A DNA stretch of 64,000 nucleotides from Psammoneis japonica (GCA_008632985.1 QPGO01000156.1:1-64000); one strand, 5' to 3'; positions 1 to 64,000 are shown, numbered from the stretch's first letter. The notes: generated by a model from the letters alone, not told the origin. Program-made: numbers and translations.

Positions 1-2337
1 TGTCTGACTCAGCTTGACCTTGCTGTCCTGACTTTGGCCCCAAACCTTGGGTCCAAAGATGACAAACTTGTTGCAAAACTTGCTCTGCTTGCCAACACCG
101 ACATGTTTGCCACAAACGGGGTGGATGCATCATGCACAAGGTTGTGTGTGTGAATGTCTGCCATGAACCCATTGTTGGCTGGATGTTCCTCAACCTCAGA
201 TGCCATGCAACGTGCTGCCTGCAATGACCACAGCTGCAACACAGACTTGTTTCTTGTTGGTGTTGATGATCATGCTTCATGTTGTTTGACCAACAACAAG
301 TCTGATCTTGTTTCGCCGCCAATGAAGGTTCATGTCAATGTCAAGGGCATCACTGGCAATGTGATCACCTCCTGCAAAGGAACTGTCTGCTGGAATATCC
401 AAGATGACAAGGCGAGACCCATGTCTTGCATGTCCCTGGCGTCTGATGCGTTCCCAACCTGCCAATGCAGCTGCTGTCTCTGCAACACCTGGCTCAAGCT
501 CTCAAGCAACAAGAGCACACTCATGAAGGGACTCATGCTGTTGCCACAAACAACTGCATTGTGCTTGAGTGGATGGACCAGAAATGCACGCGGTCGGTCC
601 CCTCAACAAAAGCAATGTTGGTGTCTTTTGCTCTGTCCCTTCTTTTAAGTCCCTTTGGGCACTGTGCGAAACATGCGACCATTGTCAAGACGAAAAATTT
701 TGTGCTTTCCAAGCAAACATCCCTGCACCCAAAGATGACACCCCTGACCCTGCCACTGCTTTTGCACATGCTGCTTTGCCTGATGGGGTCCAAGAGCATG
801 CCAAGTGTCACTCCAAATCGACCCATGTCCATGCTGATGAAGTCCCTGACAATGCTGCTCTTCCAAGTGACACAGCTGACACTGCTGACAACTCAACACC
901 TTTGCCAAGCACCAGTGCAGTCAATTTTAACTTTGCAGCTGATGGTTCGGATGCTGTTCCAGTCATTGAAGATGAAAACCTGTCACCCCAATGAGCCCAT
1001 CACAAGAAATGCTGTTGTGGCACTGCCAACTCGTGCACCCCCCGTTTTTGTGAATTAAATCTGTGGCATGGACTGGAGACTTGCACAAGAGACTTGTGGA
1101 GTGTCGCGTGCCCCAGTGTGCTGTGTGTTGATTCAGAAAAGTGACAAAAGCCCCTTGGAAGGTCAAAGGCAACTTTAAACAAAACAAAATGTTGAAGGCT
1201 GTGGAACCCGGTCAGTGTGTGTTGGTGGATCAGCTGGGCATGACAACACCAGACCCAGCCAGTCAGTTGAAAGGATGGGCAACAACAAAACAACACCGGC
1301 ATGCTGCCACATTTGTCGATCATTGCTCTGATCTCTCTTTTGTCTAACTGCAAACAACAACAACAACTGGGGTTGAGACTGCGGTGGCAAAGCGCGCCTT
1401 TGAAGCATGCTCGCAATCACTTGGAGTGCAAATTCATCACTGTCATGCTGACAATGGCCATTTTGCTGACAATGCGCATCTCTCTGCTGTTAAAGAAGCA
1501 AGCCAATCAACATCTTTTTGTGGAGTCAATGCTCACTTTCAAAATGACAGGGCCGAGAAGACAACACGCAACCTTCAAGATTCTGTTCAAACAGAGCTGA
1601 TGCACATGCAAAGCATCGGTGGCCAAAGGCAGTGGAAGTTGCCCTCTGGCAGTCAGTCAGGAAGCCTCTCCTGTGTTGAACTTTTTGCAAAAGCACCGGC
1701 AAAACCCAAACTTCGACATTGCAGCCCAACAAGACTGTTCCCAAGTGAGGCCCTCATTCCCGAGTTGGCTCACATGTTGGACCATCACCACAGCACTCTG
1801 GTTTGGTTGCTTTGGTGTTAAATCCAGTGACGGGCATGGTCTCTCCTCAACATCATGTGAGATTTGACAATTTGTTCAAAATGCTCAATTCTCAATGCGT
1901 GGTTGAGTCCTGCTGGCAACAGATCTGTCATTTCCATGACTCAAAAGTGCAGCCATGACTGGAAGAGACGACTGAGCAGAAAGCAACAACAACGGTCATT
2001 GCTCATCCCAGAATGGAACTTGTCACTCTCTGTGATGTTGAAATGCAAGATGTGCCTCAGGATGCGATGGTGCCAGAGGAGGTTCCTTTGGAGGAGGAAG
2101 ACATGGCAATGGAGTCAAATGAGGGAGCATCTGAAACTCCAGAACAACTGTCTGAACTGCTCATTCCTGATCCAGAGCTGCCACCAGAAGTGCAGACAAC
2201 CCAACCCGGATGCAAAATTCAGCTGACACAACGAATGATTGAGTCGGAACTGCAATGACAGGCCAGTGTAATTTCACACAAGGTTGGGTTTGATGCACTG
2301 GACCAAGACATGCACTGAGAACAGGATTTTGAGTCTG

Positions 2338-4740
2338 AACTTGATGATCCCATTGCATGTTCTGTGAAAGCATCAGCCGATCCTAATGCCATGCATCTTC
2401 ATGAGGCTGTGAGGCAACCAGATGCTGGTCAGTTCAAGGAGGCCATGATTGAGGAGGCACAGGATCATGCCATGCAACAGCACTGGGAACTGTGTGAGAA
2501 AACAGATGTGCCTGATGATGAAACCATTTTACCTGCAGTGTGGTCTGTGAGCCATGTGCACTGGTGCAAAAATCACGCAGAATTTTTGCGTAGAAAAAAT
2601 CACAAAAATCAGGGTTTGGGCCAATTTTTTTTTCTCATGCTTCTGTGCCGTGCTTCTCGGCTCCACCGATGCCTCAAGGAATTGGTTTCCCTCAAAACCA
2701 TTGACACCTCACATGATGACTTTTACATGAGTGACACTGTTCTGTGCATGAACAGTTCAAAGCTCCATTTTCAGAAATTCAATCAGCACTTCACCACACG
2801 GTTCCACCACGGTGAACATTTCCCAATGATGGAGTTTTGCCAAACTGTGGATGTTGTTGTGTTTGTCATCAAAAAGCAAGCATGCAAAGTGTCAATCATT
2901 GTGACTGAAATTGATTCCTCAAGGTTGTGGCCCATTTTTTGCAAAGCACGGGAAAAGCAGGATGAACAAGACATTCCACATGAATTTTCTGCGCAAGTTT
3001 TGCACCAGAAATTGGCCCAAACCCTGTTTTTTGGGACCCACAACCCCTGCACATGGCTTGTGAAGCACAAATGCTGAATCCACACACGCGAGATCTGTGT
3101 GGAAGAGTCGGCTCAATCTTGGAGGGCACAAGCAAATCCATGGAAAGCACTGTGACCAGACTTGTGCACCAGCTTTGTCTTGGACAATGACCCGGTTGCT
3201 CCTGTGTCTCTGTGTTGTGCATGCATGGCTGGCATTGAAGACAAGTAAATTTTGTCCTGGCATGTCCTCAAGCAGACATTCCATGACCAACCTTCATGGA
3301 GCCACCCAAAAGAGCAATGTTTCCTGGGGGATCGATGGCAACAAGCATTGTCTCCACGTTGAGAAAAACATTTGCGGTGGACATGACAGTGGACAAACTT
3401 GGTGCAAACACCTGTGATCTGGATTGTTGCAAATCGGATTCACAGTTTCCAAGTGCAATGGGAGTGTGCATTTTACAAGAGAGCAACAGTCTCATTGGTG
3501 TGCACTGATGATTGCCCAATCTTTGACAAGGAGTCTGCTCACAACATTGACAAGGTCACCAAGTTAATGCAAACCACATGATTTGATGTGGAAGATGAAG
3601 GAACACAAGTGATGAATGCCATGGAGTCAAGATTCAGAAGGAGAGCAACCGCTGTCACTTGGCTCAGCCTCATCTTGTCAACAGCATCCTCATTGATCTT
3701 GGCCTTGTCAACAAAGACGGCTCTCCAAAGAAAGGTGCAACTGCCAGAGATTTCCAAGCCAAACTTGATGATCCCATCACTTGCTCCTTGAAGGCCTCTG
3801 CTGACCCGGATGCTGTGCACGTGCATGAAGCCATGAAGCAGCCAGATGCAGCACAGTTCAAGGAGGCTGTGGTCAAGGAGATGCAGGACCACACCACTTG
3901 CAAGCATTGGGAGTTGTGTGAGAAAGCTGGTGTCCCCGATGACAAGACTGTCTTGCCGGCAGTGTGGTTGATGAAGTGCAAGTGCCAAATTCACACACCC
4001 AAAGTCTGCAAGTGGAAGAGTTGACTCAATCTGGATGGGCACAAGCAGATTCCTGGAAAACACCATGACCAGACTCATGTGCAAGCTTTGTCATGGACAA
4101 CAATTTGTTTGTTTCTGCATCACTGTGTTGTGCATGGCTGGCATTCAAGACAAGTCAATTTTGTCCTTGCGCACCCACAAGCAGACATTCCACAACCTGC
4201 CTTCTCATGGAACTGCCCAAGGGAGTGACTTTCCCCCGCATTGGCATCTCCAAGCAAGGTGTGCTGGAAGTGTGGGTCAGCCGGCACCAGTGTTGCTGGG
4301 CAAAGGTGCAACAGCACTTAAAATTGGGTTTGTTTTTTTGTGTTGAGAAGAACATCTGCAGCGGACATGACAATGGACAAACTTGGTTGTGCGAAAACAC
4401 CTTAGAGCCGGATCATTGCAACTTGGATTTGTTCCATTGGAGTGCAATGAGTGCATCTTCCATGAGGGATCAACAGTCCCACTGGTCTGCACAGATGATT
4501 GTCTCATCTTTGATGAAGAGTCTGCGGCCAACATTGACAAGGTTGTCAAGTTGATGCAAACCACATTTGATGTGGAGGATGAAGGAACCATTGATGAGCA
4601 CCTGGGAGTCAAGATTCAGAGGGAGAAGGACCGATGTCACTTGGCCCAGCCCCACCACATCAACAGCATCCTTGTTGATCTTGGACTTGTCAATGAAGAT
4701 GGCACACCCAAGAAAGCAGTGACCACCAGAGAGCTTCCAG
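2338..4740 (+). repeat. Tandem duplication of the RT segment (about 2338-3760 versus 3761-4740)
   Basis: Both units begin AACTTGATGATCCCAT and run colinearly through the CTDD and AQPH..NSIL..LGLVN motifs. Confidence 0.85.
2550..3058. mobile_element. MITE (509 bp) inserted in the first RT copy
   Basis: Perfect 11-bp TIR AGCCATGTGCA...TGCACATGGCT, 4-bp TSD TGTG (2546-2549 and 3059-3062), subterminal inverted blocks (CAGGGTTTGGGCCAATTT / AAATTGGCCCAAACCCTG). Removing it restores colinearity with the second RT copy. Confidence 0.88.
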
Positions 4741-6476
4741 CTCTCACTGCAAAGCTCATTGGACCTGACTTTGATGGAGACAAATTTGACTGTGATTTTG
4801 ACTGCCGATCCGTCATGGGCAAAGCAAACTTCCTTGAGAAGTCCACTTGCCCTGGTGTCACGTGTGCAACTCATCAACTAGCTTGGTTCACGGCCAATCC
4901 AAAGCAATCCCATGGTGCAGCTCTTAAACACCTCAGTTGGCACCTGCCATTGATGCATGACAAAGGCCACTGCATTCAGACCCCACCTGATGGCACCAAG
5001 AGCTTTGAGTGCCATGTGGGTGCTGATTTCTGTGGCAATTGGGACAAAACAATCATGGCAGAGAATCCCAACACAGCAAAGTCTCGCGGCGGCTGTGTTG
5101 TCAAGCATGGAGGAGCCCCTCTCCATTGGTCATCAAAGCCACAAACTCAATTTGCTCTCAGCAGCAGTGAGAGTGAGCATTTGGCCCTGTCAGCTGTCAC
5201 CAGACACGTCAAGGTGTCTGTGCATCTGTTGGAAGAAGTCAACAAACTTCACTGCCCAGTGACAACCACGCCCACAGTTTTTTGCAAGCTTTTTGAGGAC
5301 AACTCTGCAGCACTCGAAATGGGCAAGGCACCCAAGATGAGGCCCAGGACGTGCCACATTGACAATGTCTGTCACCACTTCCATTCAGAGGTTGCCAATG
5401 GACGCTTGCTGATTGAACCATCGGTGAGTGTGTGGAGGAGAGGTTCTGACTTTAACAACAGCATCATGTCAACGGCTGCAAGAGGCAAGGGCGTCATGAC
5501 TCATGGCATGAACGTGGGAAAGTTGGCGGCATTGCCACTTTAGCGTCGCAGCGACCTCGATGGGATGTGTTTTCACACAAAACCGCGACAGTGCACACAC
5601 ACTCCCGTGGACCGTAACACATTGTAGCTGGCACACAGACAGATTTCTATGCGATTTCTATGCACCTCATACAAATCATGCAGCGAGCCCTGCCAGCACA
5701 AAATGTCTGCCCTCCAACCCAATGTGAAGTGTCGCGGCTGATGATTTTCATTCTCTCAATTTCGGGAAACTCGGTGCAAGGAGGAGTCGACACCGCATCT
5801 GCAGTGGCCCTGGGACTGAAGTCAAAAGCTTGTCAAAAGGACATCTGCAAGATGACAGAACAAACAAAGAGCTGAGCCCAGCGTCAAAGAATCACAACGA
5901 AGCTGTCAAAAGACACCAGCTCGATTCCGAGGTGACGGTGACCAGATGCAAAAAATCGACACTGCTCATCGAATGGAGTGCACTGTGTAACGAAACCCCA
6001 GCCAGTCGCACGCTACTTTGCACCTCCGACAAGAACAGCATGAGACATGTAGTTTGCCTGGGTCTGGAGGCCACCACGTACACCAGAACTCAGAACCGTG
6101 GGAGGTCTTCTCTGTCTTCTTCCGTACCACTTACAGACCTCCCAGTTGGGAGTGGTACATAAGATTCCGTTCCGGCAAAGAGTGCTCGCTATTTTTCTAC
6201 GAGGGAGGGTCCGTACATTTCTACGTGTGCTGAGAGCACCATCTTGCGCTGTGACGACTCGCGCAAATCTGCGCCATAATGATTGACGTAAGGATCCTAC
6301 AGGGACGAAATCAGCCACGAAAAAGCACGCAAAAAATCCCAAGGCCAACCAGGGCAACACTGGAGCACACAAACATTGCCATTGAAGTTTAGACCAGTCT
6401 GTTTGCATAGAGCTAAGCTTCTCCGCAGTAACTCAACACTCAAGGCATACATACTCTCCATAAAGGACCCTCTTGA

Positions 6477-9022
<2,546 letters not shown>

Positions 9023-13481: not shown

Positions 13482-13914
13482 AGTAGCAAAGCATCTTCAT
13501 TACCTACCTCCTATCTACGGTAGCCTAACCTCTGGGCTTGCTTTGGTGTGGTTCCTTTTGTAGACTACAGTAGGGCTACCTATCAACAATTTGTGATGCT
13601 GTGAATGAGTGAAGCGACTATCGCTAACTTGCTCAACGGCTCACGGTCTCTAATGTATGTAGACTCTCCCGGTATGGTATATATGTAATGTACATCTCAC
13701 TCTATTTCACACTGTAACGTACTGTATGTGCGGTAGTTAAATAAATCGCCAATCGACCGTTAGACATAATATGTTTACCTTCATCGCATTTATGCTTTCA
13801 TATCTCTCTCTTACCCATAGAGAAATATACGGTATGTCATATTATATCGCCACACTTTGCAAGTCAAACTATGATAGTACTGTACTGTACGGTACTGTAG
13901 ACTAATACGACACA

Positions 13915-16470
13915 AACATCGCCACAAATTGCCGCAGAAAAAAATGTGTCCTTCTTCTCTGTGTTGTCAAAAAAATTGGCAGCCATCACTTTTGCCCCAG
14001 GCAAGAAAATCCTGGACAAATCACAGCAGACTTTTAGCAAGTTTTGTGCATCACATGTGTTTCAATCAAGACACCCAGCATGCAAGTGTTGGCAGGTGGT
14101 GTCCTTCAATCTCCTCTGAGACAACAACACAGGAGATTTGTGCTGAAGAAAAACATGTGCACACTCAAGTGAGTTTCCGAACTTTTTTTTTAGAGACAAG
14201 GGAGAGCCATGCAGCTGTGCCAGAAGACTGCTCTTTTTGTGCTGTCTGAGCTTGGGTTTGATGCAGGGAATCTCCTGTGTGAACAAACAAGACAGCAGGA
14301 GCAACACCCGCCATTCACAATGGCTGCCATGTCAGTCAGAGGCCAGCAAAAGAATTCTGCCACAACTGCACAATGGCACAGGCAAAGGGTGGCAGGATGC
14401 ACCAAACTTGTTTTGAAAGCAAGTGTTTTTTGTAAACATGAGTCACCACACTTTTTTGATGTTCAACAGGCAGGCCCTGCGGCTTGGAAACTCATCCTGA
14501 CATGGAAGTTTCTGACAAACTGAGTCTGTTGGTCAACCAACAACAGAGCGCCAATGCCAATCAGCCTCTTTTCTCAGCATTCTCAGCATGGACTTTTTTA
14601 GCTCCACTGGCTCCAAATCAGAGCCCCCTGTGAAATGTGAAAAAAGAGCTGCAGTCACACAAATGATGACACCATCTGGAAAGAATGCACAATCTTGCTT
14701 TGGATTGAGCATTGCAGTGTTTTTGTTTTTCACTTGACAACTTGCACATCTTGCTTTCTCACACTCAAGCTGGTTGAACAAGGTTTGCTTTCCAGCACTC
14801 AATGACTCAAAGATGTGGAAACATCAGTGTTCTCAACATGATTGTCGTGCACAGTCATTGCAGACAAGAAGTGCACTCAAGCCAGATTGTGGCAATGTGT
14901 TGTTGTTGTTGTCATCATTGGCATTGTTGTTGTTCATTGATGTGTCAACATGCTTTCTGGCAAAGCTTGCGGTGGGGTCACATGGCGCCAAATGTTCCCC
15001 ATCAAAGATCTTGAAAAAATCATCCTGGCTGGTGTTTTGGAGCAACAGAAACCAACAACAATCATTGCTGTGCAAACAACATGCCCAATCAGGACATGGA
15101 GTGGATGTTTGCTCTGTCATCTTTTCAAGGGAGCCTTCAAGGACAGCATTCTTCTCAGAAAATTTCTTGCCACAAAGCAAGAAATGAGGATGGGTTCTTT
15201 CAGGCTTGGGGACACAAGTGCATCGAAAAGTCTTTTGATGTTTGCATGGTGATGTCTGCAAATGCTGGCAATCCTCTGTGCCCCAGCAAAGAGTTGAATT
15301 GGCATGAAAGAGTCACACCCAGCGCCACCCTCCTTGATGCATCACTTCTGGTGCTTTTCTGGCACATTCTTCCAAGCAAAAAATGAGGTCTTCTGGCACA
15401 TTCTTCCAAGCAAAAAATGAGGTCTTCTGGCACATTCTTCCAAGCAAAAAATGAGGTCGTGTCAAGCATCTTGTGGCTCTCTTCTGGAACATCTTTGACA
15501 GCTCTCAACAAAGTGCTGGAAAAGGACAGTGGCAGTGTGGGTGGAACAGATGCTGCTCAGCTGAACACCGCCGCCAATGCAGTGTCTCAGCAGTTTGTCA
15601 AGAAAAGCATGAAACCAGGTGTCTGTGGGTTTGAGTCCTGAGCAACCAGCTTGAGTTCATTTTCACTTGTGTTGATTTCTTGGAGCTGCTTGGGCCCTTG
15701 TCAAGAAACTGTCATGCCAATGGCACCAGGAAGAAAGAACAAGAGAAACTGGGGTTGGGGCTGAGCTTTGCGATGATGTTGTTTTTGCTTGACAACTTGC
15801 GTGCCTTGTTCACTTTCCTGCACATGAGCTGATTAAGCAGGGTCAACATTTCAGCATTTGGCAGGCCCAAGAATGGAGACAATCACCTTGACATCGCCAA
15901 TGTGATCGTGAGCAGTCATTGTGGAAAAGAAACAATGTGTTGTTGCTGTGAGCCAGACTTGGTTGTGTTTTCCCAGACTGCTGCATGCTCCCTCAAAGCA
16001 CTCAACATGAAGCCTGTCTTTTCTCAAACAATCAATCATGAAATGTGCTCCTGGTGCCTTTGGTGCCCGCACAACACGCTTCTTGGATGTCCTCCCTTGA
16101 AGCCCTCTTCACAGGCTCTGTCGCCATTGTGAGCACATCATGTTGAGAGTGCTTGGGGTTGGCCAATGATCGTGATGATGAAGAAAAAACCTCTGGTCCC
16201 ATCACCATGAGCACATGTCGAGAGCACTTGGGAGATTGTGGCCTGCGACCGCGGCATTGACAAAGGGAGTTGGTGGGTGGTGTGTTTTTGCCCCACAGGA
16301 GCATGACCACTCACATCAGACAGGCGAGGCATGAGTGTGGACACGATGCATGGTGTTTGTTGAGACAGCAATGTGTCCTTGTCAAATTTTCACAGTTGTT
16401 GAGTGGTGGGCCTCCGAGTCTCACACGCCATGGTGCGGTGTGCTTTTCTGGTCTGTGCTCTTTGTGCTTT
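13915..16470. mobile_element. TpA-depleted decayed repeat block, probable transposon relic of unassigned family
   Basis: Near absence of TA, only Cys/His-rich ORF fragments, same signature as the Copia block; no family motif recognised. Confidence 0.5.
15357..15458. repeat. Three perfect tandem copies of a 34-bp unit
   Basis: TTCTGGCACATTCTTCCAAGCAAAAAATGAGGTC at 15357, 15391 and 15425, with no spacers. Confidence 0.95.
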
Positions 16471-16731
16471 CTGTGCGAGAAGATAGAAGTGTCGATCTAC
16501 AAATCTGCGTACGATGGACGGACGGACTTGGGTTGTTTTTTGTTTTTTCATTCATTCGAATTCATTCACATCGAACTCCACCCACACAACTTCTGCCCAG
16601 GCAGGATAATATCTTGGATCTGCCTGCACTGTCCATGTCAACGCAAGTGAAAACACGAGCGTTCTCTCTTGATCCGGGCATTTCCAATCATAATTCATTC
16701 GTCTCGCACTGAAAAATAAAAGAGAGACATC

Positions 16732-31251: not shown

Positions 31252-31259
31252 CCACATTG

Positions 31260-39084: not shown

Positions 39085-39207
39085 AGCAATGATGCCTTTC
39101 AAAACACATCACTCACTATGTGCAATAGTATCTAACTTAGTTTAATTCTTTTAAATCTGTATCGTTTGACTTAATGATGGTCCCCTTTGACATCTAAAAA
39201 GATGAGG

Positions 39208-42152: not shown

Positions 42153-42599
42153 GAAAAGACGAAAGTCTGGAGTTCGAACAAAGATGGCATGTTGCATGCT
42201 GCCGAAAAATTTTCAATTGGAAACGAACGTTTCGACCTTTCTGAATTAATTCTTGGTATGGCTTTGAAATTGAGTTGCTAGTAAAGTTGGTTAGTAACGT
42301 AAACGGATAAGAGTCAATCGACGAGTCGATCGATTTCATTGGCGCCATGTTGTTCAAATTCATCGATCAGGAATTGCCACATGTCTGAGCCTGACCTTGC
42401 CGGTAGCAAGGAGTTTCTTGCTCTCTAATAAGTATGGCGAATAGTGCCGTATGTCAAGTATCAAGGCATCGCGCTGAAATAATTAGACTAGCCCTACATC
42501 ATTGTGGTAACCTGAACTTGCCGGTAGAAGAAAGCGGCTCCGTATGTGTTGTACCGGTAGGTGTCTTTCACATTGAGTTAGAGAAAACTGCTGAGATGT

Positions 42600-45060
42600 C
42601 GACGGAGCACAGGAACTGGAAGGTCCAAGCCCAAAGGACAATCTGTGATGGTCGGCATTGGTGATGATGTGAGTGCACTTGATGTTGAGGTCATGGCACT
42701 CAGTTGCAACACAGTCGTGAGTGCACATTGGAATCAGCAGGTGACAGTGACTGACGAGGACTGTCTGTTGGATCTGGCAACGAGGAAGGCAAACTCGATG
42801 TTGTGGTGCAGAACTCGGCCACAACACCATTGTGGGAGCATTGGAGGAGTTGATGGGTGCCAGGGACAGCTGCAGGTCATTGGATGGTGCTGGGGACAAT
42901 GAAGGTAAACTCGATGTGGAGGGCACAGCACTTGGCCACAATGCGGTCATGGGTGCATTGGAGTCGACAGGTGCCAATGACAGCCAGGACTGTCAGTCAG
43001 TGCCAGCAACAAGGAAAGCAAAATGTGTGTCAATGGCACTGCACTTGGCTGCAGCAGTCATGGGTGAATTGGAATGGCTGGTGCCTGTGACACTTGAGGA
43101 CTCTCCAGCACATCAGCAATGGGGAGACAATGAAGGTGAGCACCAACGTTCTTGAGGGCACCAGAGTGCCTCCTGTCACACTCAGAGCTGCAGTGCATGG
43201 TCATGGATGCATTGGTGCTGGTTTGCCCATGGAAGCTGATGAGTGCTTTTTGTCAGCACTGGCAACAGCAATGGCATGCTTGAGATCAAGCGCGATGCAC
43301 TTCTTGACATCAAGATGCTCACAGGGGCACCAAATGTGTTGGAAGGTGCCTTTTTGATGCCTGGGGTTTTTGGTTGGTGGCGCAAGTGACAATGACAGTG
43401 CATTTGACATTGAGGGCATCACACTTGGCCTCAATGACAAGGTGGTCATTGTGGGGACTGTGGAAGTCAAAAGCAACTGCGATGGTTGAGGGCTGACAGC
43501 CCGCAATGCTGGCTGCATGTTGGTGCAGCCAACTTGGCCTGGGCGAAGCCAACTCAGCATCAATGCAGCAGCAAGTCTGTTGGACATGGGTGGAGGTGTC
43601 AACATTGACAAACTCTCAGAAGGGACATTTGCAGCTGTGATCGTTTGCACTGGGCATTGTGGAATGCACAGGTGTGGTTGGTGCTGTTGCAAGTTGCAGT
43701 GGCATCAGCTCACATTCTTGGACAAACCCAGAAACAGCACTTTTTTGTGTTTGAGGTGCTGGGGGAGATGTGCTGGCAGATGGACTTGCTTGCTTGCTTG
43801 TCAGGAGGGGCGCCACCAGCACCAGTTTGTTGTGTTGTTGTGTTGAAAGAAGCTGCTGATGCTGCAGGAGCCAGTGTCCTCATGGCAGAAAAAGGAGCCT
43901 CCAATGACATGCAGCAGGGTGCGTGAGAACTTGTGGGCACTTGCAATGTTGTTGGAGTGCCAGACATCACAGGCAGCACCAACGGGCATGCCAACAAATT
44001 AGCACAGGTGGCATGGAAAGAGCCGCTGGTGTGCAAACAATGTCTGGGGTTTCCTGGGCATGCAGCATCAGCTTCAAAAAAGGTGGTGCTTCCCACCAGG
44101 CCATTTTTTTGTAACAACAACAATGCAGAGGAGCAGAGAGAACATCAAGTCAGAGTGGAGTCATCAAAGCAAGAAAACAACAACCATGAGAAAAGCTTCC
44201 ACCCCAGCGGCCGCCTTGAAAGATGACACTTCACCCGTTGTCTCTGCTCATCACAACAGACACAATCTCCTGACGCTGCTAAAAAAAGAGGCTCTTTGAA
44301 TGCAGCTGTTTCTTTTCATGGGGGTGACTCTTGAGTGCTGGTGAAGTGCTCCCCATTGGCAAAAATGCAAGTGCCACTGGTGTTTGCACATTTGAGAGAG
44401 AGATCATCATCTCTTGTTGTTGCCAAGGTGGTGAAAAACATTGTCTGCAAAAATGTTGCCAACCAAATTTTCATCAAAGGGCACCAAGTCATCATCAATT
44501 TAAGGTGGCCAAATGTCAGAAATGCCAAAGTGGCATCAGGACAGAGCAAAAATGATGAGCTCTTGAATGCCTCAGTTGAGTTGGTGCGAGCACCAGCCTT
44601 GATGTTGTCTCTGGGAGGGTGCAAAGGTTGGTTCATCCAGGGAAGGTGGTGGCATCATCTGGCTGCAACTGTTTCACAAAGGCAGGTTCCATCTTTGTCT
44701 CATTTGAGTTGGTGCGAGCAGCTTTCATGTTTTCTCTTTGCGCGCAAAGGTTGGGGGTCATCCAGCCAGGAGGAGGGGTGGCCTTGTCACTCTCACAAGG
44801 CAACTGGGCTGAGGAAGCTGACAATGTGAGTGGCAGCAGCCAAAATTCACAATGACAGCAATGGCAGAAACTCTCGCTGCTGGGGTTTTGCTCTCAAGGT
44901 CCTTGTGCGGCTGACTCTGCTGGGGGGGTCTCTGTCTTGACTCGTCTGTCACAGAGAACACTGAGCAACACCTGCCTCTTCCTTTCCCACACACAAGGAC
45001 TGACAATGGCAGCTTCAGTCCCACTCTCTCTCAAGACATCATGTCTAAAGGTGTGCCATC
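42600..45060 (-). pseudogene. TpA-depleted relic of a Pro/Ser/Thr-repeat, probably single-pass, host-type protein gene
   Basis: Minus-strand fragments such as APVDSNAPMTALWPSAVPSTSSLPSLSPAPS recur; hydrophobic stretch near 44110-44190; no intact frame. Confidence 0.45.
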
Positions 45061-45455
45061 TGTTCAGATGACAGCACCAGTCTACAGCGAGCTGATCGGT
45101 GTCGGTTCAGAAATGCCATTCATTCATTGGATGGGTTGCGGTCCCCGCGCGCTGATGGTCCCAAACTGACAACCGTGCGTTATCAACATTCAAACTTATT
45201 CAAGCAAGTATGCATGCCACTCTCTACTAGCAGTAGTTGTTCCCTCATTCTAGAGTAGAACGCAACACCCAACACGCACACCCAACCAACACTACAGTAC
45301 ATACATTTTTCCAAAGGGTGGGACTGTAATGTAACAACCCCCTCGTCTAATCTCACCGGTCTTGTTCGGCCTAAAGTACAGTGGTTGGCTTCTGCTGATT
45401 GGTTGAAGGTAATTTGCTGTATAACAATTGTCCAGTCTCCCCTACCGAGAACAAA

Positions 45456-47508
45456 ATGGGCAAAAAGTCTCGCCGCGCTCGGCCGGCAAAGCAGCAACAA
45501 GCGAAGCCGCCAACGAAACTGGAAATGTTGCTCAGTCTCATGGAAACTACAGCGAGGGCGAGAGGAGACGAAGGGGCCAAACAAGATGAGAAAATACGAA
45601 AGGAGAAAGTAAAGGATCGCCTGGAGAATCCAACTGAGACCCAGAAGATTATCGATCAGATGTCGTTTGAAAATTCACTGGAGCAGCAACGTGCGTTGCT
45701 CCGATCCTTGTTTTCGAAACACGGTATCGACTGGAAATCGTACGAGCGAGATCCGTACGGTGACGGGGATCAGTCTAGATTGGACGCTGAATGGTTTGGA
45801 AGTGATATGCACGAAGTCATATACTATAAAAACTTTGACTTTCGGCACTCCTTTGCTGAAGCAGAGGCCCTCGGCGTTAAGACTCGAGGGAAAGCCGTTG
45901 ATTCTGAAGTGCTGAGTCACTTTACACAGGTTCTTGGGATCAGTTCCGACTCTTTCCATTCGGTGGTTGCTAAGATCGACAGCGAATTGGATAGAAGGGG
46001 AATGTCAAGGTTTGCTTACTTTTGCTCGCTTCCCGATGCCAAAAAGGTCGAGGAGATCATCCAGGAAACCACAAGTCCAGGATCCGAAGAACGGAAACGA
46101 CTTCTTGAACGGAGAGAGACCACCTTTCGTCTTACCCCCCTGATGGTGGCAGTTTCCAGTTATCAGATGCTCAAGGATGGGATGGATACGTGTGGATTTC
46201 CCGATGTAGTTCGCGTCTTACTCATGTATGGAGCGAATCCATTTGCCCGTGACATCATTGGCCAAACCGTTATTCACTACGCCACGGATCCAAGGTTTGC
46301 TAGGGCACCAAGGATTGCAAGAGCACTGGAGATGGCACAGATGTGCTTGGATGCAAGTCACAAGTACAGCTTGATCCACCAGACAGTCACCTTGAGATAC
46401 CTGTCGAAAGCCGAGCTGAATGGAGCAAAAGGGTATTGCGGGGGATTCGACACCGTCTCTGGTCGGTACATCATTTACCTTTCCAAGGAAGATGGGACAT
46501 TGAAGAATATGCGCACCTCAATCAAACCAGAAAATGTGATGATTGCCTGTGAAGGTACCAAAAGCAACCCATGTGGCCGGCTTGTAGACTTCGAAACGCG
46601 TTCAGGTGGAACGGCTTTGTTGGCAGTAGCGATGGACGGAAAGCAAGCCGACATCGCCTCATTTCTCATCAAGAATAATGCTAGTATTGACATAGAACAA
46701 GGCAGACTATCACCTCGATCGCTAGCCACAGATGGTGATCAGCAAGTGGCTGTCCAATCTTTACATCTTGATGGACGACCTGTAGATGCCGTCATACGAA
46801 GGAAAATTGCCAAACTTGAAAAAAAGACCCAGGCCAGCGTGACTATGAATGAAAATGCTTGCGTTTTGTGCGGGCGTAAAGGAGAAACGTTTGCTTGTGG
46901 ATGGTGCGCTGGAGTATGGTACTGCGGCGATTCATGCCAACGGAAGGTAACAAAGCTGTCGACGGAGGTCAAATCGCTTTATCATTATTCTGTATGTATG
47001 TATGTATCCTCACTTGCATTGTCCGTTTGGCTTCTTGCAGCACTGGAAAGAACACAAAGCTGACTGCAAAAAGACCAGAAACATCCTGCTCGGGCCACCG
47101 ACGGAGTTTGAACTCAAACCGGACCTTTTATCATTTTGCTTTTATCAAGTAGAGAATAGAGATCTGGATTCGGTGGAAGGTGGGTACAACCCACCTTCTG
47201 GTTACGACTTACAGGAACGATTTTGGCTCAAAGTGACAGCAAATGCAGACAATTATCTGTTGTGTTATGATAGAAGCAAAACTTGCTGCTTTGTAATTCT
47301 GAATGGATCCGAAGGCTTTCAGGAAGTCTTTGATTTGGTTCACCCCAATTACGAACCAGCGTACCAGAAAATGAACCGCGATGCCTCCCTCGGACGTCGA
47401 CGCAGCGCAACTCCATTTCTGAAGTGTCTCCACTTTACTGCCAAGTTCACTGAAGATGGTACGTGCCTAATTTTTCCAAAGTCAGCACGAATAAAGGGAA
47501 GCTTCTGA
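45456..47508 (+). CDS. Ankyrin-repeat plus MYND zinc-finger protein; intron 46947-47040
   Basis: LTPLMVAV, LLMYGANPFARDIIGQTVIHYA, CVLCG..CGWCAGVWYCGDSCQRK/HWKEHKADC. Confidence 0.88.
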
Positions 47509-54632: not shown

Positions 54633-54729
54633 AAGCTAAGTCTTTTTAAAAAGGAATTGAAAAAAAAGCAAAGCCTGCTCGCTAGCAAAAGTGAACCCAT
54701 GACCGAGAGGCACAGCCACTGGAGTAAAG

Positions 54730-55680
54730 GGTGTCGGTTGTTGCTGTTTGCAGTGACAATCGGTGCCTTTGTTGGTTTTTGTCAGATGGCAGATGGCACT
54801 CTGGAGCAAGCCTGTCCCTTTTGTTTGCTCTGACCAGAGAAAAGCCAGGTTCCAGCTTTGCTTGTTTGTGCTTTGGCCTTGCTTTGAACTCCTCCAATGT
54901 GTTCCTCTCTGCATGTTTGTGCAGCAAAGAAGAGGCAGATCACCTTGCCATGTTAGCCAAGGGGTGCAAATCTCTGAAACAATGACCATTTTGTCTCAAT
55001 GCTGCCAAGAAAACTGGAAGTTGTGCCACTCACATTTGAAAGAAAGGTGCCAAACAGCTTTGTGTCTGTCCTTTTCTGTGACACTGGAAAAGCACGGAGA
55101 AAGTGCATTTGGCACTCTGAAGATTTTTGAGGCCCCTGATGCAGCACACATTTGCTTGCTTGGAGCCTCAATGCTGCCGGAACTTTGTGCTCACCTCTGG
55201 TCAAAGCTGCAAGAATCGCCACTTGTCTGTCAGCAAAATGGCACATTTCATGGCCTGGGATGTGATGGCAGTGCATTGTGGATCAGACAGGGGCTGGCCT
55301 TTTTCTGATCATCTGCCCTGTGATGTGGCAGTTTGCCAAACCAGAGTGTGCTCATTGTCTTTTGTCATTGCTGCTGTTCGCAGGGACACAGCAGGTGCTG
55401 CTTTTGTGGTCTTTGTTTGTCGTCGAGCAGTGCTGTGTGCTGCACCAGAGTGAGCCCACCTTTCATGTTTGCTCTGGCCAGAGAGCAGCTGGGCTCTGGC
55501 TTTTATTGTTTGTGCTTTGACATTGCAGTTTGAACTCTCCCCAACTTGCTCGTTGTGTTGGCCTCACATTGGGGGCCAAAGAAAAGGTCTCGTCAAGAAG
55601 CGGCTTTTTGTCTGTCCAAGAGGTTTTGTTCTTCAGGTGTTCTTTGTGACATTTAGCTTCCATCACATTCTTCTTTCAAT
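54730..55680. mobile_element. About 1-kb TpA-depleted relic of unassigned origin
   Basis: Composition only. Confidence 0.4.
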
Positions 55681-55994
55681 CGTGAAAAGAGAAGGTTTGT
55701 TATTCTTTTCTCTATGGTGGGCTTTGTTTGTCTTTGCTTTGGACAAGGGTGGTGATGAGAGGCGTTCACTCCAGATTCCGAGATTTTGTGCGCGCTCTGC
55801 GCTATCGCAAAAATCCGGCAGGGCGGTCACGAGTCACGAGTCACGATCAAGATCTCAGTGCTCAGCGACGACGACTCCTCCTCAGCGCATCAACAACACC
55901 GCGACAACAACGAAAGCCATTGTTGATGTTCCTGAAATAGAACCAGCGTCGTTGTGTTGGTCTGTGTATTGATACATCATTTACTACTGTCACT

Positions 55995-57660
55995 ATGTCT
56001 TCTCATACAATCAAGGAGTGTTTGGAAGCCATCGGCGTCGACAGCTTTGACGGATGCGACAGCAATGTCGATCTCGAGTTTGCGCGAGTCAAGAAACAAT
56101 ACTTTCGTAAGGTTCTTCAATGCCATCCCGACAAGGGCGGTGACGCGGAAGAATTCCGTACCGTCCAGACTTCCTTTGAAGTGCTTAGAGAAATGCATTC
56201 CAAACACCTTATCCCGTCCTTTGCCAAGGAACTGGAGCGTGAAACGGCTGTAAAGGATCAGTACAATCACGTATGGGACGACTTTCAAGATGTACCCATG
56301 CCGTCGTGGGATTACTACTACACGGCCGCCGAAGAAGACGTGCCCACATACAAGGTGGAATTGGCCAAGACGGGGCGGAGTGCGTGTGTTCAACGGGGTG
56401 CAGCGAAAAAGTGTGCTGGCACCGAAAAGGTACTGATTGAAAAGGGCGAAGTGCGCATTGGATTTATGGATGACGAGATTGGGTCGTATGGGAGGTGGGT
56501 TCATTTGGAGTGCTGGCGTGTTCCAACCCTCGTTTGGATGGGACTTCCAGATCCGGCAACATGTACCGACCCGGCCGCCTTTGGCACGGCTCTGGAGCAA
56601 ATGGATCTCGTGCTACTCACGGGCTTTTCCGAGATGCCTACGGACAAGCAGCAAGAATTCATTGCGCACGTCATGGACAAGAACAATTGGGCACGCAAGA
56701 CCAAGTCTCGTAAGAAGCGCAAAAACCCAGTGGCTGGTACCGCCGCCGCTGAGACTGGCGCTGGTGACGAGGTGGCGGAAACCAATGACGAAGCGCATCA
56801 GGTAGTCCGTCACGGTGAAGTTCAGCGCGAGCGCTTTGTCATTCCGCAACCCGGCCAAGACGGTGCTCTTGCCAATGCTCTTGCGAGCAAGACGGTTGTC
56901 TTGACGGGAACCTTTCCTGAAGTGGGAGGTGGAGCGGGACTGAACTTGGGCAAAGACCGTGTCAAGGCCATGATCCAATCCTTTGGTGGTCGAGTCACCT
57001 CGGCCATTTCGGGCAAGACGGACATCTTGGTTGTGGGCAAGAGTCCTGGATTTTCCAAGGTTTCTAAAGCTCGCTCCCGTCCCAAGATTACGCTCGTCAA
57101 TCTCCGCGAGCTCAAGCAAGTCTTGGAGGGTGCCGCGATTGAAGACGTGCAGCCCGCCGTCATTACGGATTTTTCGAGTGGATACAGTCGTGGCCCGCCC
57201 TCTCTTGCCGCCTCGGCGTCGGCTGAAGAGCTTGCGATTGCGCGAGGACAAGTGGAACCCACCATTCTTAATGATGAAACCAATCAGAAGAAGCGCAAGG
57301 CGGCGCCCAAAAAGAAGGCTGCTCGTGTCAAGAAACCCAAGGCCATCAAGGAAACCGCCGAGCACGTTGTCATCACGTGCGACTCGTGTGGGTGTGATTG
57401 CACCGAGCAATCCTGGTTCGTAGAAGAGACAGAGGAGGACTTTTGCAATGATTGTCATGTCAAGAATCCCAACGAAAAGGCCGTCTTGCAGGCCAATGGT
57501 ATTACGGTGGCTGCGATTGTACCGAGCAATCCTGGTTCGTAGAAGAGACAGAGGAGGACTTTTGCAATCATTGTCGTGTCAGAATCCCAGCGAAAGGGCG
57601 TCTTGCAGCCAAATGGTATGACGGTGACCATTGTCAAGAAAAAGAAGAAGGCGCGCTCAA
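55995..57660 (+). CDS. J-domain + PARP-type zinc finger + BRCT + Cys-rich tail protein; 3' end uncertain
   Basis: VKKQYFRKVLQCHPDKGG; YKVELAKTGRSAC..KKC..IEKGEVRIG..WVHLECW; KTVVLTGTF..IQSFGGRVTSAISGKTDILVVG; CDSCGCDC..DFCNDC, partly duplicated. Confidence 0.88.
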
Positions 57661-58752: not shown

Positions 58753-59249
58753 TGTGATCGGGAGGAAAAACAGAATTCCTGGTTTCACTAAAGTTGCCAA
58801 GTTTCGCCAAACAATAATTGTTGGGTGTTGTGACCGACCTGAGACCGTGTCTCAGTCATCCGTGTGGCAGTTCGCGCATGGATGGTTCGGGTTCGTTTTG
58901 TTCCTTGAAAAAGTGATGACTCTCTTCATTCAACGGCATGAATATGTTGATTGTGACAGATCACCAACCGGCACCACGTGAAAGGTGGGACAATAGCAGT
59001 AGGCCCGGTACATTGTCTGTTGTTCCATCCGCTACAGAAAAATCATACGAGACATTGTGTAGAGTGTCATCTCATAACCTTTTCAACTTTTCAGCACCTC
59101 ACATTTTTTTTCTTTCCGAGCAACAAAAAAAAATCACATCGCTTCTTCCTTTGGATGAAACGATCATACAGTAGGACATGTGTTTGTACGACACTCGAAT
59201 GTTTTGGGTCCCACACGCGCTCAAGTAAATTTTTGAATGACTCATCTCA

Positions 59250-62200
59250 GCCAAGAGTCGCCACAGAAATGTCAGTTCAGTTGCTCAGTCCGACATGGAG
59301 TCTTGTTGATGCAGGTGGTGGGTGGTGGCATGTTGGGTGCTTTGTTGGAGCGAGCATGAGTTGCCGGAGGCGGTGGTGAAGGTGATGGTGGTTTCGTCGA
59401 AGGGGACACCAGGGGCTTGGCCGCGCTTTCTTTGCATGGATGGATTCGGCGATGGTGGCGGTGCTGGGTGGGTGTCTTTGCAGGACTTGTGGCATCAGAG
59501 GTTGGGCGGAGGGAGGTGTGTGCGGCATGGCGGTGTTTGCATTGGCACAGGTGGTGTTGTTGATGGTGATGTTGATGCAGGCGGCGTCATTGTCTCTGGA
59601 TCTGGAGCAGCCGGCAATTCAGTCAGTGGCATTGGCGCAAGTGGGGGCACTTGGCGGCGATTGCGCTGGCAGCATGTTGGAGTCATCGCTGATGGTGGAG
59701 GTGGTGTCATGCTGGCAGGAGCAGGTGGCATTTCAGTCTGTGGTGTTGGAGTTGACCACGTTGACACAGGCCTCGTTGAAGCTGCGCAGGAGGTGTTGGG
59801 TGTTGGCAGTGAAGGATGGCTGTGTGGGATTTGTCGTTGGAGGTCGGAGGGAGAGTTGGGCTCGGTGTTGCAGTGGCATTGGGTGGCTGTCTGTGTGGGA
59901 TTTGGTGTCAGAAGTAGACAGAGTGAACAGCCCACTGGTTTTCTTAGAAGCAACTTGAATGCTGCAGTCTGCTTCGTGCAAAACCAGGGTGCCAGATCAT
60001 TTTGGGAGTGCAGGTTGGTCACACGGACTGGTTGCCTTAGCTGCAAACACCTGCTTTTGTCACAATGTGTGCAACAGAGAGGTGCAATCCAAATGGCAAG
60101 GCATGAAATGCATGTGAGAGTGGGCTGCAACACCATCATGGATCGGCTTGGACACCGCTGCTGCAAAATGTGAGAGTGTGTCATTTGTGTCGCCACCAAG
60201 AAGATTGATGATGACACACACGGCAGTCTAGATGACACATTTCGGAAATGACATGATTGAAGACTTCTTGGCATTGGACAAACACATTCAAGATGCATTT
60301 GCCAACAAAAAGGAAACAACTTAATCTGTCGATTCTCAAGGCATGACAGCCACAATGATGTGATTTGCTGCCAGTGCAAATGATGATGCTGTCAGCTCCA
60401 ACACTTCCAGTTTGCTGGCATGCCAGCAGGCTGCTGTTGCGAATGCAGCAAAAGGAGTCATGATCAATTTGAAGCAACCATTGTTTTTCTTAAAACCGCT
60501 CAATGCACATGTCAACAATGGGAGAACCTCTTGCGGTGGGGTCTTTGGCTCATCACTCGCACTCTGTCGGAGGCAGAAATGGCACAAAAATGAGGTTGAG
60601 TCACTCAAATGTAAAAAACACAACTCAAATGGAGTTTGGGAAGTGGAGTCGCCATGCAGGAACCTTCTCATGGGCACAAGAAAGACATTCATGCCCCGAT
60701 TCTGCTTCCCATGTCAACATTGAGGCCACCGCAATTGACACACTCATCATGGTGGGACGGTGTGTTTTGCCATGCAAAAAGCATGGGAGTGTTGGAAGGG
60801 TGGACGAGCACCAGGCAGAATGTTTGAGTTGAAGCATTCAAGCTGTGAGGTCCCTCCACGCAGGGCCTTTCACATGGTGCCGGTGATGTGCTGTGTCACG
60901 TCTGTCCTCACAAGTTGTTGTCTCCTCTCCGCTTGTCACAAACGGCATGGGGCATGGCAAGACCACCATGATGAGTTGCGAGCCTCGCAGTTGACAGCTT
61001 TTTTCAACTGCAACACCACACACCACCTGCTCATCTTTGGATTTCTGGCAAACCTCCCTGCTGCCGTGTTGGTGCCTTCAAGCACTGTGACTGCCCCACC
61101 AGCTGTGAAAAGGGCTTGAGAAGACACTGTGTGGTCAGGTGGAAATGAAAAAGTGAAAATGTTCCTTGCGTTAATGATGAATGACCCCTTGTTGAGCCCC
61201 AGGAAGAGAGCCACGCGCCACATGGTTGGCAGAGTGCCGGGCCCACATGATGGTTTTGCTTCAAATTGGGATGACTCACAAGGCTGGTCATGCTTTCTGG
61301 AATCACCTTCTTGATGGTTTGGTCATTGAAAAGGAAACAACCATGCTTGCTCAGAAACTCATTGCTGTGGTGGGCGTGTGCATCAGAGGCCGCAGCACTG
61401 TGATGTTCACTTCCCTTCGTCTGATTTGTGACATTTAACATCACGCAAGTTCATCTTTTTTGTTTGTTTTTTGCATCCAAAAATTCATTAAACAGTGCTT
61501 TTATTTTTCATGTTTTGTGAGATGTGTTGTCACCTGTTTGTTTCACTTGTTTTTCTCAATCAACCCAAACATGCCTTTTTTTAAATTTCAAACCTTTTCA
61601 TTTTTTGACAACATCACCACATTTCTTTTGATGTGTTGTCTTTGAAAGTGGTTTTCAACAGCTCTGCCCCGCACATGTGCCGCCGCAGTTGCTGGCATCC
61701 CCTCTGCGCCCAAGTCATTCCCATGTGCACTTGCCTCATTTTCTCCAGCACTTTCCAGAATTTTTAGTGCATGGCTCTCTACTCAGTTTTTAGCACATGT
61801 TCTACATCCACAATTTTCTGCGCATTTCACAACAGTGCATCCTCTCCCCAAAATGCATTTGACCAGAGCATGTGCTGTCATGATTCACGTGCTTTCCACG
61901 CGAATCAACAACTGACTTTTGGCCATGGTGGTCAATGACTTTACCCCATCCCATGACAAGGTCAACCATGACCCTTCCTTCCAATTCCCTGATGAGTGTG
62001 ATTTTGATGACATGGAACATTTTGCCAATGGTTTTGGAATGGAGTTGTTTGGTCCCAAGCTCAAAAGCACAATTTCAATGCTTGCATCCAAAAAGCAGTT
62101 TTTGGAGACAACAAATTGGTCCCCCTCTCCAGAATTCCTTGTTCTTCCCTTCCTTTGTCACAAGCCAAAGTTGCGTTGCATTCCACATGTCACAGAAGTC

Positions 62201-64000
62201 ATCCACACCAACAACATTGTCAGGAAAACTCTTGGATGCCCTGACATTTGGTCTTGCATCATGACCAGTGGTTGGTCCATGAAGAAATCCGACGTGCTGA
62301 AAGGTGAATGTGTTCTTCAACATTAAAATTTGGAGGAAGCTCTCCATTTCTCCAAACTGCCCGGAGAGACAGCAAAAAAAGAGGATTGTCACGTGCAACT
62401 TTGCTGCAAGATCAAAGCAATGGCAGAACTTGTTTGTGTGATCATCACCGGCGATGACCCAAATGATCCTGTCTCTGGCAAGCCTTGTTTCCATTTTTTT
62501 ATGGTGCAAAAGTCTCCAAGAGATGATCAATGACCAAGCACATGACCTTCACGGTGCATGCGTTGTCATTGAAATTGTCATGTGTTGCATCGAGTGCAAA
62601 TCAAAGGACATGGACTGTTGGTTCATGCAGATTTTTCACCGTGTCAATGCCCAAAAGGAGTGGCACATGTTCGTCAACAGCTTTCTTGTCACATGTGATT
62701 CCAATGGTCCATGTTCCCAGGAGGATGAGATCAAGGGGTTCCTTAGAGACAAACTTGGTGACATTGAGAACTCTGTGACAATGGCAGGTGACTCCCTTGC
62801 TCATTGGGAGGTGCACGAAGAAAAAATCAGTTCCATGTTGAATCATGAATTTGGGAAGGGCTGTCCTGTGAGGAGCAACCTGGCACATGACCCAGGCACA
62901 GCAAGCAGCTCACAATGCTTCAGCTAAAATTCAGAAGCATTGGGAGGAGCATCACATGTTGAGTGTTAAGACAGAGGTTTGAAATTTTTGCAATGGCAGT
63001 TTTCCTCTGATGGCTGTTGCACAACACAATCACAAAATCTGCAAAGCAGTCACAACAACACATTGAGACAAGTGCAATGGCAAAAAGGAAGACAGCAAAG
63101 GACAGGATGATGGCAGAGGCATCACCAAACAGCCCCAGGCTAACAGCAGCATTGCAGCAGGTGGGTGCAGCAGGAGATCACCAATCTCTGAAGAGAGAGG
63201 TGGAAGAGGTGGCACGGAGAGAGCCATTCCCAAAAGAGCGAAGTTCTTTGTGAAGGCGGACATGGCAAGTGGTGGCAAGGTGTCAAGGCCAGTGCAGAAA
63301 AACACGGCCAATGGCAAGTTCAGCAAGCATGAATGGGCAGGGTCATGGGAGGACTGGGTGAAGAAATGTGTGCTCAATGCAGTCAATGCAAAAAAGAAAC
63401 ACCGTGTGTCAGACGATGATGAAGAGTGTGATGAGCGGCAAGTGCTGTGGGGTGCATTTCCAAAATGGGACTGGGTGTGGTGCTGCTGACAAGATTCTCA
63501 TTTTGCTGCAGTCATGATGACAGAAGAACAAGCCAAGGAAATCCGTGGGATGAAGAAATTGACAAAGAAAGCAAAAAGTGCAAAGAAGTGCAAAAAGCCC
63601 CCTGCGGACCATGAAGAACAGTTCCTGGCAACTTGGGAGGATGAGGCAGCAGACACCATTGTGTTTGAGAAGTGGACAAACAAGGAGGCACACACATGGC
63701 TCTACAACAACATTCTAAAATTCATGGAGAGCACTGCAATGTGGAGAAGGATGGTGGAGTCTGGCAGCACCAAGGCTGCAGATCCAGCTGTGGCAAGTGA
63801 TGAGGCACTGGCGCTGTTGATGTTGGAAAACTGCTGGAAGGTTTGGGAGCACAAGACCGTGCAGGAAAGAAAGGATGAAGGGAGCAAAGAGGAGGAGGGG
63901 GAAACAAAACCAGCGCCCTTGCACACAGACCTGATGCAACAGCATGACTCTTGGAATGACAAAGGAATGCAGCAATTCAATGCCCTGCTTGGGGAGGCAA
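59250..64000. mobile_element. Large TpA-depleted block, probably a decayed DNA transposon; runs off the window end
   Basis: Composition; a + strand relic at about 63070-64000 reading ASDEALALLMLENCWKVW..WNDKGMQQFNAL resembles, from memory only, accessory ORFs of diatom DNA transposons. Confidence 0.5.

Follow-up and report, generated by a model that had tools for sequence, protein, structure and literature searches.

What process strips nearly every TpA step from some segments of a chromosome, when the genes lying between those segments use TA and tyrosine normally? The question is raised by a stretch of 64,000 nucleotides from the diatom Psammoneis japonica (GCA_008632985.1, QPGO01000156.1:1-64000; the window hereafter), in which a first-pass annotation had described seven TA-poor blocks and proposed a genome defence acting in reverse to the repeat-induced point mutation (RIP) of fungi. 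We can say with good confidence that a dinucleotide-specific hypermutation struck settled chromosomal segments here, that the segments would have been marked by a silencing signal, and that the process is probably of the same kind as that found in the chlorarachniophyte alga Bigelowiella natans (Mettrop et al., bioRxiv 10.64898/2026.01.13.699255).

The ratio of observed to expected TA (o/e) was profiled in 500-bp windows over the 64 kb, and block borders were taken from a segmentation on TA density. In seven blocks nearly all 500-bp windows had a TA o/e of 0.00-0.12, against mostly 0.3-0.9 outside them, the exceptions inside blocks being 0.14 and 0.17 in 27963-30530 and 0.19 in 59188-63999. 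The blocks sum to 22,004 bp, have individual TA o/e values of 0.03-0.09, and agree with those first described to within a few hundred bases at their borders:

1-6013, plus strand: dead Copia-type long terminal repeat (LTR) retrotransposon, cut by the window start; 28 TA, TA o/e 0.07, CG o/e 0.33.
13907-16497, no strand assigned: TA- and CG-depleted block, nature unassigned; 6 TA, TA o/e 0.03, CG o/e 0.24.
27963-30530, minus strand: ornithine decarboxylase (ODC) pseudogene with introns; 14 TA, TA o/e 0.09, CG o/e 0.76.
31041-33282, no strand assigned: TA-depleted block, its left part matching many public contigs; 12 TA, TA o/e 0.08, CG o/e 0.45.
42559-45082, no strand assigned: TA- and CG-depleted block, nature unassigned; 7 TA, TA o/e 0.05, CG o/e 0.21.
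54684-55937, no strand assigned: short TA- and CG-depleted block with an internal 61-nt repeat pair differing by CA/TG switches; 7 TA, TA o/e 0.09, CG o/e 0.42.
59188-63999, plus strand: block depleted of TA and CG, cut by the end of the window; 26 TA, TA o/e 0.08, CG o/e 0.36.

Across all seven blocks together there are 100 TA, whereas the background o/e of 0.58 predicts about 832 (Poisson p 5e-228); this is an o/e of 0.07, or about 8-fold TpA depletion, and it goes with TG and CA o/e values of 1.71 and 1.74. CG is also short, with 502 occurrences against about 1,302 expected and an o/e of 0.21-0.45 in six of the blocks. Only TA, CG, TG and CA differ between the blocks and the rest of the window, the other 12 dinucleotides being unchanged, and the deficits of TA (about 732) and CG (about 800), about 1,530 together, come close to the TG plus CA excess of about 1,575. 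Because the lost TA and CG balance the gained TG and CA, GC content is unchanged (0.47-0.51 in the blocks, 0.44-0.53 in 2-kb windows of the remainder). The loss of TA with gain of TG and CA is thus as first described; the CpG loss that occurs with it had been overlooked. Two other TA-poor stretches, 7035-7956 and 56739-57499, were not counted, as they are GC-rich exons with normal CG and no TG/CA surplus.

All six reading frames and the non-coding DNA of the blocks are purged of TA alike. In 13 open reading frames (ORFs) of the blocks, with 3,089 residues, tyrosine accounts for 0.16%, compared with 2.14% in 17 normal ORFs with 7,368 residues; the corresponding figures are 4.66% and 1.57% for cysteine and 4.63% and 2.24% for histidine. 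The 22 kb of blocks carry 170 open frames of at least 70 codons, in all six frames and rich in Cys and His; such long open frames abound because TA loss abolishes TAA and TAG stops, and gene callers may take these frames of dead elements for genes. The TA sites that survive lie in TTAA in 22 of 100 cases, compared with 73 of 1,647 in the background (p 4e-10), and in TTA or TAA in 73 of 100, compared with 620 of 1,647.

Such a pattern might come from base-calling, polishing or assembly errors at modified bases in heterochromatin, a possibility that the first-pass annotation had raised itself and that would suit changes limited to regions which are likely methylated. Public contigs bear on this. 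They were built from the largest run on one sample in one study, of no recorded library type and possibly the assembly's own source, and they reproduce part of 27963-30530, most of 31041-33282 and all of 42559-45082 with 0-2 differences. Some parts of the window had no cover in one of the runs. The matches cover 27104-29176 (2.1 kb) and 31606-33832 (2.2 kb) with 0 differences each, and 37700-46999 (9.3 kb) with 2, the last within a single 19,733-bp contig that bridges both edges of 42559-45082. Clean contigs at a k-mer depth of about 34-60 imply accurate reads. Furthermore, the copies have frameshifts, a nonsense codon and, at catalytic residues, changes that do not involve TA, all of which are signs of real decay, and a stable base read as G by every chemistry will have become a G once the DNA has been replicated. 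An artefact is consequently highly improbable.

The direction of change was established from the two blocks that can be compared with intact proteins. The Copia relic has Gag-like, integrase, reverse transcriptase (RT, in two copies) and RNase H domains, all on the plus strand. A tblastn search with an intact relative of 1,350 amino acids (P0241) gave nine high-scoring segment pairs over 196-5453 in shifting frames, with stops at conserved columns within the aligned frames, and Pfam RVT_2 matches lie at 3064-3414 and 4371-5540. Copia hits include Nitzschia inconspicua. Motifs in which tyrosine was said to have been lost are present, all on the plus strand: HCHADNG at 1438, CTDD as VCTDD at 3501 and 4488, and CHHF at 5370.

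A column was called conserved when at least 80% of homologues agreed (15 intact Copia polyproteins, 40 diatom ODC proteins, or diatom EHD proteins), and EHD, a normal gene 10 kb away, served as control. In the Copia relic none of 26 conserved tyrosines is kept (Cys 10, His 13, other 3), against 15 of 48 arginines (Gln 10, Cys 7, His 4, Trp 2, Lys 3, other 7) and 412 of 537 other residues. The ODC copy keeps 2 of 13 tyrosines (Cys 7, His 3, Arg 1), 13 of 14 arginines and 247 of 284 other residues, or 260 of 298 for all residues but tyrosine; the EHD control keeps 4 of 4, 10 of 11 and 153 of 165, respectively. A lost conserved tyrosine became Cys or His in 33 of 37 columns (Copia 23/26, ODC 10/11). 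When a single TG or CA was reverted to TA, the conserved residue was restored at 46 of 184 changed columns in Copia, 16 of 70 in ODC and 0 of 30 in EHD, which bears out the TpA-context excess that had been expected; reversal of TG or CA to CG restored a further 46, 10 and 1, respectively.

These comparisons also bear on the idea that low TA is native or selected, the elements having evolved to avoid TA, for example against a nuclease or an RNA-decay pathway. TA is under-represented in most organisms, and its o/e is only 0.58 even in the rest of the window. However, catalytic and structural tyrosines are replaced in the dead copies, and non-coding DNA and all frames are purged to the same extent, neither of which fits avoidance. 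Intact relatives of both Copia and ODC use tyrosine and TA normally; for Copia, tyrosine stands at 2.3-4.0% in all 41 hits and TA o/e at 0.33-0.85 in two related metagenome loci, so these elements are not natively TA-less. Native TA avoidance is hardly credible. As the first-pass annotation had it, the loss is mutational and runs from TpA to TpG or CpA, a direction well supported by the protein comparisons.

Both products arise in about equal amounts. TG and CA number 2,417 and 2,319 over all blocks and are nearly equal in six of the seven, 54684-55937 being the exception with 146 TG and 104 CA. On the sense strand of the Copia relic, A>G changes (Tyr to Cys) number 10 and T>C changes (Tyr to His) 13, so that action on both strands, also claimed before, was borne out. 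No strand-coordinated runs of TG or CA were found in the blocks beyond those of controls (z from -2.2 to +1.0, against -1.6 to -2.8). The order of events can be read from a repeat within the relic:

3061-4732, plus strand: internal duplication of the RT region, 3061-3750 against 3972-4732, with 76% identity by self-blastn.

In a global alignment of its halves, 137 of 671 columns are mismatched, and 18 double switches between CA and TG are among them; there are 43 adjacent double mismatches, where chance would give 27.9 +/- 4.3. A switch between CA and TG means that one ancestral site was resolved independently in each copy: the duplication arose first and was mutated afterwards. Shorter repeat pairs in other blocks have the same switches.

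The ODC copy adds evidence of another kind. It is 75% identical to a decarboxylase of Nitzschia inconspicua and, having GT...AG introns that open with GT at 29823 and about 29612, is no retrocopy. At 29700-29702 an arginine codon of the orthologue is replaced by an in-frame TGA, the histidine of the pyridoxal phosphate site is glutamine, and GGGFPG reads GVGFPG; by these sequence features it is a pseudogene.

Deaminases are known to attack selfish nucleic acids at an earlier stage. ADAR and ADAT enzymes, which edit A to I, prefer U 5' of the edited A, and APOBEC3 hypermutates retroelement cDNA. Element RNA or cDNA might thus have been edited by ADAR/ADAT or APOBEC-like enzymes and dead-on-arrival copies integrated. 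Deaminase-type hypermutation of selfish sequences and a 5'-U/T preference fit TpA, the edges of change are the ends of discrete segments with untouched flanks, and block 1-6013 is a retroelement. However, these enzymes act on RNA or single-stranded cDNA and would mark one strand, whereas here both chromosomal strands and an intron-bearing gene are affected; Tyr to Cys and Tyr to His are balanced in the relic, as are TG and CA over the blocks. The ODC copy, which keeps its introns, never passed through processed RNA, the halves of the Copia duplication mutated independently, and in B. natans the mutations are reported to arise in integrated DNA (10.64898/2026.01.13.699255). Since changes on both strands, action after duplication and the ODC introns do not fit editing of RNA or first-strand cDNA before insertion, this explanation is already largely refuted, and we regard it as quite improbable. 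The sequence evidence points to events in the chromosome itself, on both DNA strands and after integration.

A second, ordinary process is predicted from composition in six of the seven blocks, namely deamination of methylated CpG. Its signature is CpG depletion with TG/CA gain in those blocks and, in the Copia relic, arginine replaced by Gln, Cys, His or Trp. CpG decay of this kind is expected in silenced diatom retrotransposons, because LTR retrotransposons are reported to be CpG-methylated in Phaeodactylum (PMC2806351). It yields Cys and His from arginine, and about half of the TG/CA surplus in the six blocks. The known consequences of methylated-CpG decay (CpG loss, Arg to Gln/Cys/His/Trp, gain of TG and CA) are thus all present, but such decay cannot remove TA, and in the ODC block and at the block margins it is TA that is lost, CpG being retained. 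The ODC block combines a TA o/e of 0.09 with a CG o/e of 0.76, and is struck by the TpA process almost alone. The final 500 bp or so of the Copia block (about 5470-6013) is TA-poor with normal CG, and at other blocks a margin of 100-650 bp is likewise devoid of TA while its CG density is ordinary. In the ODC block and in these margins TA is scarce and CG has stayed near normal, so that the two processes can be told apart. Arithmetic on the o/e values, with the background o/e as start, puts the rate of TpA loss in the ODC copy at about 7 times that of CpG loss; for the blocks taken together the ratio is 2 or more, TA loss there being saturated. With the TpA and CpG reversal classes removed, the ODC copy departs from its family consensus at 44 of 355 columns and the EHD control at 30 of 227, and judged by this the copy is hardly decayed apart from the two dinucleotide processes.

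The changes are confined to discrete blocks, as first described, of dead mobile or pseudogene DNA with abrupt edges. These edges are sharper than about 50 bp, and sharper than 30 bp at 13907; at 13906/13907 and 42558/42579, it takes no more than tens of bases to pass from ordinary TA-rich intergenic DNA into TA-free sequence. Next to the ODC copy, two affected blocks are parted by normal DNA:

30531-31040, no strand assigned: unaffected spacer upstream of the ODC copy, between two blocks; TA and CG normal.
32945-33217, plus strand: rRNA-methylase-like fragment (PF06962, E 2e-8) at the right margin of 31041-33282; TA-poor, CG normal.

The TA-free domain takes in the ODC transcription unit; that about 500 bp upstream of the ODC copy stayed untouched between two affected blocks argues for targeting by units rather than neighbourhoods. 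The PF06962 fragment may be a second gene remnant caught by the process, or a spill-over into a neighbouring gene. Sharp edges, a spared ODC upstream region and a gene-copy target would fit RNA-guided and homology-based choice alike.

The further claim that the process is restricted to repeats was not borne out. One target is a gene copy, and block 42559-45082 lies whole inside one public contig, so that it has no near-identical second copy there; this concerns near-identical copies, and old diverged ones may exist. Self-blastn found no similarity between the blocks; the repeats that it detected lie within single blocks, apart from two tandem repeats in genes. Over 30335-32335 the contigs have a summed depth of 397-913, compared with about 60 in other parts, which is to be read as a hint and not as copy number.

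A cluster of 14-16-nt palindromes occupies 30490-31243, of the form CGATTCT-NNNN-AGAATCG, with spacer copies CGATTCT-TAAG/TCAAG/TTGAG-AATCG. Its centre is TTAA in the unaffected spacer and TCAA in TA-depleted parts; TTGA occurs once, in the unaffected spacer. The palindrome or its carrier is probably multi-copy, as judged from the pile-up of public contigs (summed depth up to 913).

The public contigs also include second versions of some of this DNA. Over 29149-29838, 82 letters and 9 gaps differ in 690, a version that was not used to polarise changes, and over 33068-33832, 24 of 176 and 52 of 486 letters differ, roughly 10-14% divergence overall. Matching contigs over both intervals have about half the neighbouring depth. 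This suggests, as a hint only, two very divergent haplotypes, sub-genomes or a paralogue. A contig joint from 27517 to 33068, with 40 letters on one side, may mean that the ODC copy and the next block are hemizygous; it was too weak to be used.

How does the process relate to known systems? In fungal RIP, described in Neurospora and other fungi, C>T changes at CpA make TpA and leave AT-rich relics of duplicated sequences; RIP depends on duplication, a sexual phase and a RID-type enzyme. The two share dinucleotide-specific transitions on both strands, in place, in transposons and gene copies, with boundaries at the target ends. In both chemistry and direction they are opposed: the process in the window removes TpA by A:T>G:C change, TpA falls 8-fold instead of being in excess, and block GC is ordinary rather than AT-rich. 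The 'reverse-RIP' analogy of the first-pass annotation is therefore apt, and the process may be regarded as a functional analogue of RIP.

No described pathway had been known to the first-pass annotation, but one is documented. According to the preprint on B. natans (10.64898/2026.01.13.699255), which reports de novo change from TpA to TpG or CpA, 231 of 302 new point mutations in mutation-accumulation lines fell in integrated giant-virus (NCLDV) and virophage regions, and of these 231, 230 were A>G or T>C changes, every one at a TpA; not all lines had them. The mutations arose episodically in integrated DNA at about 1000-fold the background rate. The genome is reported to hold 124 TpA-depleted, CpA+TpG-enriched clusters and 324 TpA-poor coding sequences, enriched in RT and DDE domains, and the authors propose an ADAT2-like DNA adenine deaminase. 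The window agrees with this account in TpA changing to TpG or CpA on either strand, in discrete foreign or selfish DNA and in TpA-depleted, CpA+TpG-enriched clusters; the TA-derived class consists of A>G and T>C changes in TpA context, confined to discrete blocks. It differs in several respects. The host is a stramenopile, not a rhizarian; the targets are an LTR retrotransposon, a cellular gene copy and unassigned segments, instead of NCLDV and virophage inserts; the blocks are near saturation (o/e 0.03-0.09), whereas live targets reported for B. natans are still TA-rich (Rho TpA 0.45 for NCLDV). Unlike the substitutions given there, those in the window include a separate C>T class at CpG, a decay that goes with TpA loss here; the preprint, in the text available, mentions neither CpG nor diatoms. 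A full-text literature search, with subscription journals outside its scope, returned the signature in no organism other than B. natans and in no diatom, and a term look-up in two diatom transposon papers (PMC2806351; bioRxiv 10.1101/2025.10.24.684338) did not find it. The window is best filed, by analogy, as a second, independent occurrence of B. natans-type TpA hypermutation, in a different lineage of the stramenopile-alveolate-rhizarian (SAR) group, with new targets and in a saturated state.

We envisage the following mechanism. The targets, which here comprise a Copia retrotransposon, a copy of the ODC gene, one member of an uncharacterised, repeated family of genes and four unassigned segments, would be marked by a silencing signal, for instance one based on small RNA, on homology or on the state of the chromatin. 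At TpA, the A:T pair is converted to G:C on either strand, resulting in TG or CA, and action halts within tens of bases of the target edge. A mutated site, no longer being TpA, is immune, so that the reaction is self-limiting, and it has come close to saturation. Methyl-CpG deamination would be superimposed on six of the seven blocks, feeding the same pool of TG and CA. As to the chemistry, our tentative choice, which we put near an even chance, is an ADAT2/TadA-type enzyme that deaminates adenine while the DNA is transiently single-stranded. The natural target of these enzymes is A34 of tRNA, which always follows U33, and such an enzyme would therefore bring the 5'-T rule for free.

Alternatively, T of TpA in silenced DNA might be oxidised by a TET/JBP-type dioxygenase, with further-oxidised forms mispairing with G to give T>C. 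The outcome would be equally strand-symmetric, and 5-formyluracil mispairs with G. Dinoflagellates, also of the SAR group, are reported to have TET/JBP homologues that make 5-hydroxymethyluracil (5hmU), which is linked to transposon silencing (PMC11572971, PNAS 2024), and older work cited there has 5hmU preferentially replacing T in TA and TC. However, 5hmU is a modification and not a fixed mutation, and its preference for TC has no counterpart here, TC o/e being 1.03 in the blocks and 1.13 in the rest; furthermore, the B. natans authors favour a deaminase (10.64898/2026.01.13.699255). We hold thymine oxidation to be unlikely, but far from negligible.

Several points weigh against hypermutation of marked, settled segments as set out above. 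The ancestral state derives from protein conservation and not from a family-wide DNA alignment, and what is seen is an accumulated outcome rather than present-day activity. The interval 30335-31001, at very high summed contig depth, is mostly not TA-depleted, so that being repeated is not sufficient for targeting. Five blocks are without an assigned origin: four match neither Pfam, apart from the PF06962 fragment, nor the Copia proteins, and the fifth (59188-63999) contains an ORF of an uncharacterised family. The independence of the contigs and their read chemistry are deduced from contig quality, on material from the same sample, and the TTAA bias of residual TA has no mechanistic account.

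The other contents of the window can be given briefly. The genes between the blocks code for Cdc5/Cef1, a U-box protein, Sec5, the EHD GTPase, whose best named hits are diatoms, and a Na/Ca exchanger with EF hands. Together with the ODC and Copia matches to Nitzschia inconspicua, the EHD hits place the window in a raphid pennate diatom near the Bacillariaceae. A Pfam scan of 152 of the 170 block ORFs of at least 70 amino acids, the other 18, all in 27963-30530, being left out, matched RVT_2, ODC domains and one rRNA-methylase fragment and nothing else. There was no match among 21 such ORFs in 13907-16497 and none above noise in 42559-45082; a tblastn search of the window with 41 Copia proteins found no Copia remnants outside the first block, and no LTRs or terminal repeats were found in the five smaller blocks. 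Within 13907-16497, a 34-nt unit stands in three tandem copies at 15357-15458; they are 100% identical, and the expansion is therefore younger than most of the decay of the block. The last block contains one further recognisable feature:

63067-63999, plus strand: broken ORF, interrupted by one TGA; its protein family is uncharacterised (48 homologues with E <= 0.001, the best at 2.8e-23).

It has no Pfam family. In an alignment of 12 sequences its conserved tyrosine columns read H, C and H, and one tyrosine is retained. The family has a conserved ...SDEALALL.LEN.W.VW... core and a Lys-rich tail, and the ORF is probably part of an undescribed diatom mobile element.

TpA hypermutation was unrecorded until 2026 and has rested on one preprint and one rhizarian alga. 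Its saturated end state in a diatom suggests that the pathway is widespread in SAR algae, extends its targets beyond viruses to LTR retrotransposons and copies of cellular genes, and separates it from CpG methylation decay. Such a mirror image of RIP would call for a cell's own editor of adenine in DNA, or else for a mutagenic modification of thymine, in either case with targeting built in. We propose tentatively, at somewhat less than an even chance, that TpA erasure is a dedicated genome-defence pathway common to distant SAR lineages. In diatoms it would be the main and fastest killer of transposons and stray genes, outrunning methyl-CpG decay and guided by a signal that respects the ends of elements or transcripts; because it can work on DNA with no CpG decay, cytosine methylation would not be needed for it. 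If this is true, diatoms, which include transformable model species, would be the genetically tractable relatives in which the enzyme and guide of a natural, targeted A:T-to-G:C DNA editor could be found.

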